Positions 48,853 through 56,263 are shown, counted from the stretch's first letter. The stretch is DNA of 64,000 bases from Escherichia coli (GCF_965641715.1 NZ_OZ282453.1), one strand, 5' to 3'. Program-made: numbers and translations. Notes: generated by a model not told the origin, from the sequence alone.

Positions 48853-49758
48853 ATGCGTCGAACGTTTATCAAAAAAGAAGGCGTCGTTATCACGACGCTG
48901 GCCCGTTATTTGTTGGGTGAAAAATGCGGTAATAGGTTGAAAACCATAGATGAGCTGGCAACTGAATGCCGTTCATCCGTTGGCCTGACGCAGGCCGCGT
49001 TGAAAACGCTGGAATCAAGCGGAGCGATACGGATTGAACGCCGTGGGCGCAATGGCAGTTATCTGGTCGAGATGGATAACAAAGCATTGCTGAGTCATGT
49101 GGATATCAACAACGTGGTATGTGCGATGCCTTTGCCCTATACCCGCTTGTACGAAGGTTTAGCGAGCGGATTGAAAGCCCAGTTTGATGGCATTCCTTTT
49201 TACTATGCGCATATGCGCGGCGCGGATATTCGCGTGGAGTGTTTACTTAACGGCGTGTATGACATGGCGGTGGTTTCCCGACTGGCGGCGGAAAGTTATC
49301 TCACGCAAAAAGGGTTATGCCTCGCGCTGGAGTTGGGGCCGCACACCTACGTTGGCGAGCACCAGTTGATTTGCCGTAAAGGCGAGTCCGCAAACGTGAA
49401 GCGTGTGGGGCTGGATAACCGTTCGGCGGATCAGAAAATCATGACCGATGTTTTTTTTGGCGGTAGTGATGTGGAACGAGTCGATCTCTCTTATCACGAG
49501 AGTTTACAACGCATTGTTAAAGGCGATGTTGATGCGGTTATCTGGAACGTGGTGGCGGAAAACGAACTGACCATGCTGGGATTAGAGGCGACGCCGCTCA
49601 CAGACGATCCGCGATTTTTACAGGCCACCGAAGCCGTGGTCCTGACGCGAGTCGATGATTACCCAATGCAACAACTGCTGCGTGCCGTTGTAGATAAACA
49701 CGCCCTGCTCGCCCATCAACAACGGGTGGTGAGTGGGGAACAGGAACCGAGTTATTAA
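48853..49758 (+). CDS. yhfZ: Putative transcriptional regulator YhfZ (301 aa; N-terminal winged-HTH-like region, C-terminal ligand-binding domain)
   Basis: ORF begins MRRTFIKKEGVVITTLARYLLGEKCGNRLKTIDELATECRSSVGLTQAALKTLESSGAIRIERRGRNGSYLV. Confidence 0.85.
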   Translation: MRRTFIKKEGVVITTLARYLLGEKCGNRLKTIDELATECRSSVGLTQAALKTLESSGAIRIERRGRNGSYLVEMDNKALLSHVDINNVVCAMPLPYTRLYEGLASGLKAQFDGIPFYYAHMRGADIRVECLLNGVYDMAVVSRLAAESYLTQKGLCLALELGPHTYVGEHQLICRKGESANVKRVGLDNRSADQKIMTDVFFGGSDVERVDLSYHESLQRIVKGDVDAVIWNVVAENELTMLGLEATPLTDDPRFLQATEAVVLTRVDDYPMQQLLRAVVDKHALLAHQQRVVSGEQEPSY

Positions 49759-49774
49759 ACGAAAGGCATCTGAT

Positions 49775-50137
49775 ATGGAAACCAGACTCAACCTGCTTTG
49801 CGATGCAGGCGTTATTGATAAGGACATCTGCAAAGGCATGATGCAGGTCGTCAAGGTACTGGAAACAGAGTGCCATCTGCCGGTGCGCAGTGAGCAAGGA
49901 ACGATGGCGATGACACATATGGCGAGTGCACTGATGCGCAGTCGCCGTGGTGAAGAAATTGAGCCACTGGATAACGAGTTGCTGGCAGAGCTGGCGCAAT
50001 CCAGCCACTGGCAAGCCGTTGTGCAATTGCATCAGGTGTTGTTGAAGGAATTCGCATTGGAAGTTAACCCGTGTGAAGAAGGCTATTTGCTGGCCAACCT
50101 TTATGGATTATGGATGGCTGCTAACGAAGAGGTTTGA
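49775..50137 (+). CDS. yhfY: PRD-domain-like protein YhfY (120 aa)
   Basis: Start METRLNLLCDAGVIDKDICKGMMQVVKVLETECHLPVR preceded by a GAAAGG Shine-Dalgarno. PRD assignment is from recalled annotation. Confidence 0.8.
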   Translation: METRLNLLCDAGVIDKDICKGMMQVVKVLETECHLPVRSEQGTMAMTHMASALMRSRRGEEIEPLDNELLAELAQSSHWQAVVQLHQVLLKEFALEVNPCEEGYLLANLYGLWMAANEEV

Positions 50138-50220
50138 AGCTCCCGACAAATCCACGTCGCACAACCTAAATATTCAAAAAAATGAATATTTAATTCAAGG
50201 AACAGAAACGAGGCAACAAG

Positions 50221-53850: not shown

Positions 53851-53861
53851 AAGGCACGACT

Positions 53862-55166
53862 ATGGATCTGTATATTCAGATTATCGTGGTGGCGTGCCTG
53901 ACGGGTATGACATCGCTTCTGGCGCATCGCTCGGCGGCTGTTTTTCATGACGGCATCCGCCCGATCCTGCCGCAACTGATTGAAGGCTATATGAACCGTC
54001 GCGAGGCGGGGAGTATCGCTTTTGGTCTGAGCATTGGTTTTGTGGCCTCGGTGGGGATCTCTTTTACCCTGAAAACCGGGCTGCTAAACGCATGGTTACT
54101 CTTTCTTCCTACCGATATCCTCGGCGTACTGGCGATAAACAGCCTGATGGCGTTTGGTCTTGGCGCTATCTGGGGCGTGTTGATCCTTACTTGCCTGTTG
54201 CCAGTAAACCAGCTGCTGACCGCGCTGCCGGTGGATGTATTAGGTAGCCTCGGGGAATTAAGCTCGCCGGTGGTTTCTGCTTTTGCACTGTTCCCGCTGG
54301 TGGCGATTTTCTACCAGTTTGGCTGGAAGCAAAGTCTGGTCGCCGCCGTGGTTGTTCTGATGACCCGTGTGGTAGTCGTGCGCTATTTCCCACATCTTAA
54401 CCCTGAATCCATCGAAATCTTTATTGGCATGGTGATGCTGCTGGGGATCGCGATAACTCACGACCTGCGTCATCGTGATGAAAATGACATCGATGCCAGC
54501 GGGCTTTCGGTGTTTGAAGAGCGCACGTCGCGGATTATCAAAAACTTACCCTATATCGCCATCGTGGGAGCATTGATTGCCGCCGTTGCCAGTATGAAGA
54601 TTTTCGCCGGCAGTGAAGTGTCGATCTTCACTCTGGAGAAAGCGTACTCCGCAGGCGTAACGCCGGAACAATCGCAAACGCTGATCAACCAGGCTGCACT
54701 GGCAGAATTTATGCGCGGGCTGGGTTTTGTACCGTTGATTGCCACCACCGCCTTAGCAACGGGTGTGTATGCAGTTGCGGGCTTTACCTTTGTTTATGCG
54801 GTGGGCTATCTCTCGCCGAATCCGATGGTTGCGGCGGTATTAGGCGCAGTGGTTATTTCGGCGGAAGTCTTGCTGCTTCGTTCGATCGGCAAATGGCTGG
54901 GACGCTACCCGTCGGTGCGTAATGCGTCGGATAACATCCGTAACGCCATGAATATGCTGATGGAAGTGGCGCTGCTGGTCGGTTCGATTTTCGCAGCAAT
55001 TAAGATGGCGGGTTATACCGGATTCTCTATCGCGGTTGCCATTTACTTCCTCAACGAATCCCTGGGCCGTCCGGTACAGAAAATGGCGGCACCGGTCGTG
55101 GCAGTAATGATCACCGGTATTCTGCTGAATGTTCTTTACTGGCTTGGCCTGTTCGTTCCGGCTTAA
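53862..55166 (+). CDS. yhfT: YhfT (434 aa), polytopic inner-membrane protein, putative transporter
   Basis: MDLYIQIIVVACLTGMTSLLAHRSAAVFHDGIRPILPQLIEGYM...; hydrophobic segments throughout. Confidence 0.85.
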   Translation: MDLYIQIIVVACLTGMTSLLAHRSAAVFHDGIRPILPQLIEGYMNRREAGSIAFGLSIGFVASVGISFTLKTGLLNAWLLFLPTDILGVLAINSLMAFGLGAIWGVLILTCLLPVNQLLTALPVDVLGSLGELSSPVVSAFALFPLVAIFYQFGWKQSLVAAVVVLMTRVVVVRYFPHLNPESIEIFIGMVMLLGIAITHDLRHRDENDIDASGLSVFEERTSRIIKNLPYIAIVGALIAAVASMKIFAGSEVSIFTLEKAYSAGVTPEQSQTLINQAALAEFMRGLGFVPLIATTALATGVYAVAGFTFVYAVGYLSPNPMVAAVLGAVVISAEVLLLRSIGKWLGRYPSVRNASDNIRNAMNMLMEVALLVGSIFAAIKMAGYTGFSIAVAIYFLNESLGRPVQKMAAPVVAVMITGILLNVLYWLGLFVPA

Positions 55167-55177
55167 GGAAGGCACCT

Positions 55178-56263
55178 ATGAAGACGTTTCCTCTGCAAAG
55201 CCTGACGCTTAATGAAGCGCAGCAAAAGCAGTTTGCGCTGGTGGACACCATCTGCCGCCATTTCCCCGGCAGCGAGTTTCTTACTGGCGGTGATTTAGGG
55301 TTAACTCCAGGGTTGAATCAACCGCGCATTACCCAGCGGGTGGAGCAGGTGCTGGCTGATGCATTTCACGCACAGGCCGCGGCGCTGGTACAGGGTGCGG
55401 GTACTGGAGCGATTCGTGCGGCGTTGGCGGCTTTGCTCAAACCGGGGCAGCGTCTTCTGGTGCATGACGCGCCTGTTTACCCGACGACACGGGTTATTAT
55501 TGAGCAGATGGGGCTGACGCTTATTACTGCTGATTTCAATGACCTGTCGGCACTGAAGCAGGTCGTCGACGAGCAACAACCTGATGCCGCGCTGGTGCAG
55601 CATACGCGCCAGCAGCCGCAGGACAGCTATGTGCTGGCAGATGTGCTGGCAACGTTGCGCGCGGCAGGTGTTCCAGCGTTAACCGATGACAACTATGCGG
55701 TGATGAAGGTGGCGCGAATCGGCTGTGAATGCGGCGCGAATGTCTCGACATTCTCCTGCTTCAAGCTGTTTGGGCCGGAGGGCGTTGGTGCAGTGGTTGG
55801 CGATGCCGATGTTATTAGTCGGATTCGCGCCACGCTTTACTCCGGCGGCAGCCAGATCCAGGGCTCACAGGCGCTGGAAGTGTTGCGTGGGCTGGTGTTC
55901 GCGCCAGTGATGCACGCGGTGCAGGCAGGGGTATCTGAACGGTTGCTGGCTTTGCTCAACGGTGGTGCAGTGCCGGAAGTGAAAAGCGCCGTCATTGCCA
56001 ATGCGCAGTCGAAGGTGTTGATTGTCGAGTTTCATCAGCCGATTGCCGCCAGGGTGCTGGAAGAAGCGCAAAAGCGTGGCGCGTTGCCTTACCCGGTCGG
56101 TGCAGAGTCGAAATATGAAATCCCGCCGCTCTTTTATCGCCTTTCCGGAACGTTTCGCCAGGCGAATCCACAATCAGAACATTGTACGATTCGCATTAAC
56201 CCGAATCGCAGCGGTGAAGAGACGGTGCTGCGGATTTTGCGTGAGAGTATTGCGAGTATTTAA
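55178..56263 (+). CDS. yhfS: YhfS (361 aa), putative PLP-dependent enzyme
   Basis: MKTFPLQSLTLNEAQQKQFALVDTICRHFPGSEFLTGGDLGLTPGLNQPRITQRVEQVLADAFHAQAAALVQGAGTGAIRAA; candidate PLP-lysine in SCFKLFGPEG. Confidence 0.82.
   Translation: MKTFPLQSLTLNEAQQKQFALVDTICRHFPGSEFLTGGDLGLTPGLNQPRITQRVEQVLADAFHAQAAALVQGAGTGAIRAALAALLKPGQRLLVHDAPVYPTTRVIIEQMGLTLITADFNDLSALKQVVDEQQPDAALVQHTRQQPQDSYVLADVLATLRAAGVPALTDDNYAVMKVARIGCECGANVSTFSCFKLFGPEGVGAVVGDADVISRIRATLYSGGSQIQGSQALEVLRGLVFAPVMHAVQAGVSERLLALLNGGAVPEVKSAVIANAQSKVLIVEFHQPIAARVLEEAQKRGALPYPVGAESKYEIPPLFYRLSGTFRQANPQSEHCTIRINPNRSGEETVLRILRESIASI

Follow-up and report, generated by a model that had tools for sequence, protein, structure and literature searches.

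A cluster of eight genes, yhfZ, yhfY, yhfX, yhfW, php, yhfU, yhfT, and yhfS, occupies positions 48853–56263 of a 64,000-nucleotide stretch of Escherichia coli DNA (GCF_965641715.1, NZ_OZ282453.1), which is referred to as a whole as the window. All eight open reading frames (ORFs) lie on the + strand, and the successive junctions from yhfZ to yhfS measure +16, +83, 0, −4 (an ATGA overlap), +10, +11, and +11 nt. The initial annotation had described this co-oriented, tightly packed arrangement and had listed the products as a winged helix-turn-helix (wHTH) regulator, a stand-alone PRD-like protein, two putative pyridoxal phosphate (PLP) enzymes, a phosphopentomutase-like metalloenzyme, a phosphotriesterase-homology amidohydrolase, a small unknown protein, and a membrane transporter; the ORFs, their coordinates and junctions, and their Pfam and NCBIfam domain content all agree with that description (Table 1). 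It had also proposed that the genes form a catabolic operon whose substrate is phosphorylated or contains nitrogen, a proposal that comparative context supports and narrows to an amino-sugar type linked to the phosphoenolpyruvate (PEP)-dependent phosphotransferase system (PTS). The reading of the cluster as a catabolic operon coupled to the PTS, acting on a compound of amino-sugar type and regulated by YhfZ and YhfY, is given a probability of roughly 0.5.

Table 1. Features of the yhfZ–yhfS cluster and its regulatory regions (window coordinates).
Feature	Position	Strand	Description
yhfZ	48853–49758	+	HTH_41 DNA-binding domain and YhfZ_C effector domain (2OZZ); presumed cluster regulator
yhfY	49775–50137	+	Stand-alone PRD-like protein; invariant His48, Ala52, Arg55
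yhfX	50221–51384	+	Fold-type-III PLP enzyme, Ala_racemase_N and YhfX-like_C; PLP lysine Lys61 kept
yhfW	51385–52611	+	Metalloenzyme domain, phosphopentomutase-like; divergent cap domain
php	52608–53486	+	Phosphotriesterase-family (PTE) amidohydrolase; PF02126, 488.7 bits
yhfU	53497–53850	+	DUF2620; RpiB/LacAB fold; invariant Cys52-x-Thr/Ser-Gly loop
yhfT	53862–55166	+	Polytopic membrane protein, small YhfT family; presumed permease
yhfS	55178–56263	+	Fold-type-I PLP enzyme and YhfS-like_C; Lys196, Asp170 kept
O1	48807–48820	.	Operator-like inverted repeat TTCATTTTAATGAA; 46 nt 5′ of the yhfZ ATG
O2	48831–48844	.	Operator-like inverted repeat TTCATTTTATTGAA; 22 nt 5′ of the yhfZ ATG
O3	50167–50191	.	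25-nt conserved element TAAATATTCAAAAAAATGAATATTT; about 30 nt 5′ of the yhfX ATG
trpS terminator	48709–48735	+	Intrinsic terminator, GC hairpin and T-run, read from the sequence; upstream cluster boundary

The strain of the window is not K-12, to which it shows about 97% identity, and the same eight genes are annotated in RefSeq in both K-12 and O145. All eight ORFs are intact in the window, with no internal stop. The ratio of nonsynonymous to synonymous substitution rates (dN/dS) against K-12 is 0.076 overall and 0.00–0.165 for the individual genes, with the lowest values, 0.00–0.03, in yhfU, yhfT, and yhfZ; purifying selection acts on the eight cluster genes. The cluster stretch is found in 5083 of 5426 complete E. 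coli genomes (94%), and about 6% are without it. From dam to nirC the window and K-12 are colinear, which places the cluster between trpS and the genes frlR to cysG and bears out the neighbours trpS, frl, and cysG named by the initial annotation.

Relatives of the cluster were collected by a DUF2620 motif search of 100,044 species genomes, in which 171 stretches encoding a relative were matched and 80 loci were collected, and by addition of a dozen metagenomic loci reached through distant YhfT homologues. Comparison of the resulting approximately 95 loci (numbered with the prefix L), the kind of check that the initial annotation had named, revealed a linkage to PTS and amino-sugar genes. Enzyme I (EI) of the PTS, with or without HPr, is encoded inside the yhf-like operon at six loci: in the order W-HPr-EI in L010 and in two Paenibacillus species (L088 and L089, with gaps of 6–33 nt), as an HPr-EI fusion following a SIS gene in L011, in the order HPr-SIS-EI-U-T in L093, where the genes overlap and the EI stop overlaps the yhfU start, and in the order U-T-EI in L094. 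Since L088 and L089 are both from Paenibacillus, the six loci count as five mutually divergent clusters. Furthermore, no kinase was identified in any cluster with annotated genes, though a phosphomutase is nearly always present. The embedded EI and HPr genes, the lack of an identified kinase in the annotated clusters, and the phosphomutase competence predicted for YhfW are the reasons why phosphoryl supply by the PTS is suggested.

The neighbourhoods also point to a class of substrate. In 11–12 Bacillota loci, a nagB gene whose product passes the equivalog cut-off (323.8 versus 236.9 bits) follows yhfW or yhfX, often trailed by a HisJ-type PHP phosphatase and an aldose 1-epimerase and preceded by a Cof-type sugar phosphatase. 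The SIS proteins encoded in the two metagenomic loci L011 and L093 have NagB-II/GlmS as best match. In 6–7 Vibrionaceae loci, the cluster has as neighbours a Lac/Cel-family (chitobiose-type) PTS, a DUF7916 protein, and a secreted CBM5/12 protein. The nagB genes, the NagB-II/GlmS-like SIS genes, and the Lac/Cel-family PTS neighbours suggest an amino-sugar theme. One contig of Photobacterium lipolyticum (L059, L060) carries two modules, Z Y P U T X W and Z P U T, and these flank a Lac/Cel-family PTS (EIIC; EIIB and EIIA by sequence inspection only), DUF7916, and CBM5/12. Across the collection, the clusters hold three non-homologous types of amide-bond hydrolase: a PTE, an amidase-signature-like protein, and HyuA/HyuB. 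The amidase-like protein, unannotated and 324–377 aa long, occurs beside PTE in three unrelated lineages (L006 15708–16682, L076, and L094 6471–7604) and resembles the amidase-signature motif only faintly. The L010 cluster has no PTE gene and has in its place HyuB and HyuA, subunits of an ATP-dependent hydantoinase/oxoprolinase, encoded together with an NCS1 permease (L010 4517–9649) between the yhfY-like and yhfU-like genes.

The small protein YhfU, listed as unknown in the initial annotation, can be refined to an RpiB-fold protein with an invariant cysteine. It has both the RpiB/LacAB fold and the catalytic Cys/Thr loop: in the hhalign comparison, YhfU Cys52-Asn-Thr54-Gly falls on the catalytic Cys66-Gly-Thr68-Gly of RpiB. 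An alignment of YhfU relatives from Gammaproteobacteria, Bacillota, and metagenomes contains 13 invariant columns, including G8, D33, G50, C52, G55, G57, G68, G94, and V96-A-F-G99. Cys52 is placed at the end of β-strand 3, and a Gly-rich loop and the N-terminus of a helix come next. YhfU is about 30 residues shorter than RpiB/LacAB, with the C-terminal 30 residues missing, and RpiB Asp9/His10, His99/Asn100, and the C-terminal phosphate-binding Arg are absent from it, being replaced or lying in the missing segment. It gives no match to the Pfam LacAB_rpiB family, and the NCBIfam rpiB model reaches only E values of 0.02–0.05. The adjacent yhfT encodes a member of a small family, with 338 representatives among 1.84 billion, that matches no solved structure. 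With few exceptions among the loci, yhfU and yhfT are direct neighbours, with gaps mostly of 9–12 nt and ranging from −4 to +326. Natural YhfU-YhfT fusions were looked for, but no convincing case emerged, the fused entries having the look of frameshift artefacts.

Four enzymes complete the cluster. YhfX, encoded in 54 of the 57 complete loci, is together with Php the most widely retained of them. It is a distinct branch of fold type III, about equally far from alanine racemases and D-threonine aldolases; a profile search of the PDB for its subfamily was uninformative and returned only alanine racemases (E 5e-5) and D-threonine aldolase (0.013). In YhfW, the residues D10, T84, D298, H302, D338, H339, and H350 align with the nucleophile and metal ligands of Bacillus cereus phosphopentomutase (PPM), and these catalytic residues are conserved in 73 homologues, with Thr or Ser at position 84. 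A phosphorylated substrate is to be expected, since the nucleophile and all metal ligands of phosphopentomutase are kept. The cap region, around residues 104–235, aligns poorly with PPM, and YhfW stays below the DeoB cut-offs (183 bits versus 256 for NF003766; 145 versus 341 for TIGR01696). It passes NF009049 with 736 bits over the full length (1–408 of 408), so that this model is apparently of the YhfW type and not of DeoB. YhfW would be a competent phosphomutase or phosphotransferase with a substrate other than that of DeoB. In Php, the binuclear metal ligands H12, H14, E125, H158, H186, and D243 are conserved. Against the PTE subfamilies with known substrates it scores about 100 bits, where the cut-offs are 500 (OPH) and 630 (phospho-furanose lactonase), and its candidacy as an orthologue of the phospho-sugar lactonases was rejected on the missed equivalog cut-off. 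YhfS, a fold-type-I subfamily of its own, is accessory, with its gene found in 31 of the 57 complete loci.

YhfZ, encoded in 55 of the 57 complete loci, matches the NF041241 equivalog with 373.8 bits (cut-off 260) and combines a wHTH and an effector domain with a palindromic site near its own promoter, as a GntR-type regulator does, judged at the sequence level. The pattern TTCA-W6-TGAA has three matches in the 64-kb window, O1, O2, and O3, where 0.02 would be expected, and all three fall in the two regulatory regions of the cluster and nowhere else in the window. The palindrome arms of O3 lie at 50168–50176 and 50183–50191; 22 of its 25 positions are identical in K-12 and eight other enterobacterial taxa, the right arm varying in four genera, and the surrounding yhfY-yhfX spacer has diverged while O3 itself is nearly invariant. 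A TTCA-N6-TGAA site is found at −46 of yhfZ in most Enterobacteriaceae loci, and the offsets upstream of yhfZ are the same throughout this family; for Vibrionaceae, an equivalent site is located around −9 to −32 in most loci and at −90 in one, and for Yersinia and Ewingella around −90 to −105. The motif is thus conserved over three gammaproteobacterial families, Enterobacteriaceae, Vibrionaceae, and that of Yersinia. These sites are most likely operators of YhfZ. As candidate operators they define two predicted units, yhfZY and yhfXW-php-yhfUTS, the second of which agrees with an operon listing quoted in an earlier paper (PMC4448311). That paper, a 2015 riboswitch scan, lists the operon only as a neighbour of distant candidates (PMC4448311); an RNA element in the yhfY-yhfX spacer was considered and rejected, Rfam giving no match in the window.

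The second regulator, YhfY, scores 20.1 bits (E 8e-4) against Pfam PRD, under the gathering cut-off of 23 that its homologues pass. His48, Ala52, and Arg55 of YhfY are invariant among 72 sequences, which reads as the signature of a phosphorylatable PRD, and a PRD protein with the invariant His48 is part of nearly every related cluster.

Put together, these features suggest a substrate-inducible catabolic operon made up of the units yhfZY and yhfXW-php-yhfUTS. Both are most likely under the control of YhfZ, through the TTCA-N6-TGAA operators, and YhfY, with its invariant His, most likely links this control to the phosphorylation state of the PTS. The substrate would be taken up by YhfT with YhfU as its obligate partner, and the phosphoryl group would most likely pass from PEP to EI and HPr, no kinase being involved. 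Next to the permease YhfT, Cys52 of YhfU is suggested as the most likely last phosphoryl carrier. In the cytoplasm, the phosphorylated compound may be processed by the amide/ester hydrolase Php, which elsewhere would be replaced by the amidase-like protein or HyuAB; by one or two PLP enzymes, YhfX nearly always and YhfS often; and by YhfW as a phosphomutase. The suggested order of these steps leads to an amino-sugar 6-phosphate such as glucosamine 6-phosphate (GlcN-6-P), which would be deaminated to a glycolytic ketose phosphate by an in-cluster NagB or NagB-II elsewhere and by the housekeeping NagB in E. coli. As substrates, N-aminoacyl-hexosamines, hexosaminic acid lactones or lactams, Heyns and Amadori compounds, O-glycosyl-serine, and muramic lactam were considered; because none of them accounts for all of the enzymes, none is proposed with confidence.

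It is possible, as a tentative extension, that YhfT, YhfU, and YhfY make up a previously unrecognised branch of the PTS without EIIA, but we consider this rather unlikely. In such a branch, the phosphoryl group would move from HPr~P to His48 of YhfY, to Cys52 of YhfU, and on to the substrate crossing YhfT, which would be a permease with a new fold. YhfZ would also be informed of substrate flow through the phosphorylation state of YhfY, and the SFCGS/DUF4310–4312 clusters would be a sister system.

Several points weigh against a PTS-coupled amino-sugar operon. Neither nagB nor genes for EI or HPr occur in the clusters of E. coli, Yersinia, and Vibrionaceae, and the yhf-type clusters that were examined contained no EIIA-family domain. 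The EI and HPr encoded in the other clusters could serve regulation only, through the PRD protein. The nagB cases are not independent, since they lie mostly within related Bacillales families, and the neighbourhoods were analysed with a crude ORF caller. Most Yersinia (L044–L055) have cleanly lost yhfW, leaving a yhfX-php gap of 62 nt; they are also without yhfS, and Y. nurmii retains yhfW. The two PLP enzymes have no explained role on a route to GlcN-6-P. The most distant YhfT homologue (L009 10001–11978, E 3e-23) has no DUF2620 partner, and a 227-aa PNP_UDP_1 nucleoside phosphorylase follows YhfT of this type on two independent contigs. YhfT has no similarity to a recognised PTS EIIC family, and YhfU looks more isomerase-like than IIB-like.

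One alternative explanation seems possible, if on balance doubtful: YhfT would be an ordinary ion-coupled secondary transporter and YhfU a cytoplasmic aldose-ketose isomerase of the RpiB/LacAB type acting on an intermediate, with the PTS proteins only setting the state of YhfY and YhfZ and the phosphate coming from a kinase elsewhere or with an already phosphorylated substrate. Such an isomerase would have to work without the residues of RpiB noted above as absent from YhfU. A soluble isomerase also gives no obvious cause for the near-universal adjacency to yhfT while the other enzyme genes shuffle, and both the translational coupling of EI to yhfU in L093 and the lack of an identified kinase in the annotated clusters speak against it. 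The RpiB-likeness of YhfU could also be accommodated by a pentose or nucleoside-like substrate, from which a pentose 1-phosphate would be released, its phosphate moved to the 5-position by YhfW and the sugar isomerised by YhfU, while the PLP enzymes and Php treat the aglycone. The closest characterised relatives of YhfW are indeed phosphopentomutases, and the nucleoside phosphorylase beside distant YhfT and the NCS1 permease of L010, of a nucleobase/hydantoin type, fit this scheme. However, the yhf-type clusters contained no phosphorylase, nucleosidase, or ribokinase; nagB, the NagB-II-like genes, and the chitobiose-type PTS neighbours point to hexosamines instead, and YhfW, with its unalignable cap domain, misses both DeoB equivalog cut-offs. 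A pentose route is thus improbable.

Less probable still is that in E. coli the cluster is a cryptic or decaying leftover that has no physiological role today. The lack of a known phenotype or inducer, the yhfT frameshift in O145 RM9872, the genomes without the cluster, and the loss of yhfW in Yersinia could be taken in this sense. They stand against eight intact genes with a low dN/dS, especially in yhfU, yhfT, and yhfZ, against catalytic residues and candidate operators conserved across families, and against the detection of the YhfW protein in E. coli (PMC7730263).

The surroundings of the cluster differ among strains. Between the trpS terminator and the yhfZ promoter, K-12 carries an insert of about 146 bp containing repetitive extragenic palindromic (REP) sequence (L002 18487–18633), and the window (48695–48711) is without it. 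On the 3′ side, REP-like repeats are followed by the convergent frlR-frlA genes; the convergent yhfS-frlR spacer (56290–56412) is filled by repeats like REP or bacterial interspersed mosaic elements (BIME), for example GCCGGATGCG...CTTATCCGGCCTAC. In O145 RM9872 (L001), the entire frl operon is missing and yhfL-cysG come directly after yhfS; yhfT is annotated as frameshifted in this strain. The initial annotation had pointed out that frl lies next to yhf; this synteny does not extend beyond Enterobacteriaceae, and some E. coli do not have it. A functional link between the two, with adjacency only in this family and lost in O145, was rejected. At the far end of the window, positions 1–25000 cover the malT-malPQ, feoB, and yhgF region, where segments have as many as 23 matches in a genome and 908 in plasmids; this suggests a mobile or repeated element somewhere within that part.

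The cluster itself is a well-known orphan, and the statement of the initial annotation that its genes have no assigned physiological role holds. Structures have been solved for YhfX (4KBX), YhfS (4J8L), Php (1BF6 and 4LEF), and the C-domain of YhfZ (2OZZ), all deposited as uncharacterized; for YhfU, YhfT, and YhfY no solved relative was found by sequence search. A validated published pathway would have overturned the initial annotation; the full-text literature searched, in which few subscription journals were covered, contained none for the yhf products, nor any mention of DUF2620. YhfZ is called a putative transcription factor in a 2025 paper (PMC12147183), and yhfW is listed among uncharacterized genes in one of January 2026 (PMC12924614). 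New here are the RpiB-fold assignment of DUF2620, the recurrent linkage to EI/HPr and to nagB/SIS genes, and the predicted operator. The cluster is among the largest gene blocks of E. coli K-12 still without a function, despite crystal structures for four of its eight proteins. A PTS-coupled operon would bring a new permease type into a system whose E. coli inventory is generally held to be complete, and would give DUF2620 and the YhfT family a role. It would also mean that gut Enterobacteriaceae, marine Vibrionaceae, and soil Bacillales harvest a common nutrient, probably an amino-sugar derivative of host, dietary, or microbial cell-wall origin. The operator, the phospho-acceptor residue, and GlcN-6-P as end product are predictions of the analysis, and deletion of yhfZ is offered as a means to turn the operon on.

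Among known systems, the closest in architecture, and equally uncharacterised, is the SFCGS/DUF4312/DUF4311/DUF4310 cluster of Enterococcus and Aeromonas (EF_0829–EF_0839, TIGR03576–03583). It encodes a PRD protein, a soluble Cys-Gly protein of about 115 aa, novel membrane proteins, an amidohydrolase, and a fold-type-I PLP enzyme (PMC11934601). The likenesses in sequence are all sub-threshold, with YhfY weak against TIGR03582 and DUF2620 weak against TIGR03577 (E 0.08–0.19). Unlike the yhf cluster, it has a DgaE-family lyase and a KDGP aldolase, three small membrane proteins instead of the single YhfT, and no YhfX, YhfW, or PTE. The neighbouring fructoselysine operon frl of Enterobacteriaceae also handles nitrogen-bearing sugar derivatives, and its FrlB is a SIS enzyme like the NagB-II-type proteins of L011 and L093. 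It is convergent to yhf, however, with its own regulator FrlR and kinase FrlD; beyond Enterobacteriaceae it does not lie next to yhf, and O145 E. coli that have kept yhf are without it. RpiB and LacAB share the fold of YhfU, which differs from them in failing every family hidden Markov model (HMM) and in being tied to a membrane protein.

In the Salmonella dga operon, D-glucosaminate is taken up by a mannose-family PTS under a sigma-54 activator and degraded by the ammonia-lyase DgaE and the aldolase DgaF. The yhf route would share with it a fold-type-I PLP enzyme acting on a PTS-delivered phosphorylated amino-sugar derivative, and YhfS-like proteins are weakly similar to SelA/MJ0158; yhf clusters, however, have no aldolase, and YhfS is outside the DgaE family by every HMM. 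The PTE lactonases of the Lmo2620 type, and the lactonase UlaG of the ula L-ascorbate PTS, are metallohydrolases that open the ring of a PTS-delivered phosphorylated sugar derivative, but Php, at 100 bits against the phospho-furanose lactonase cut-off of 630, differs from them. The closest known logic is that of the nag pathway, in which NagE takes up and phosphorylates the substrate through the PTS, the amidohydrolase-superfamily enzyme NagA removes the N-substituent, and NagB deaminates GlcN-6-P. YhfT is not a Glc-family EIICBA, Php is a PTE-family enzyme and not NagA, the regulators are YhfZ/YhfY in place of NagC, and the two PLP enzymes and the phosphomutase have no nag counterpart; the likeness lies in the order of the proposed route and in the true nagB carried by the yhf-like clusters of Bacillota.

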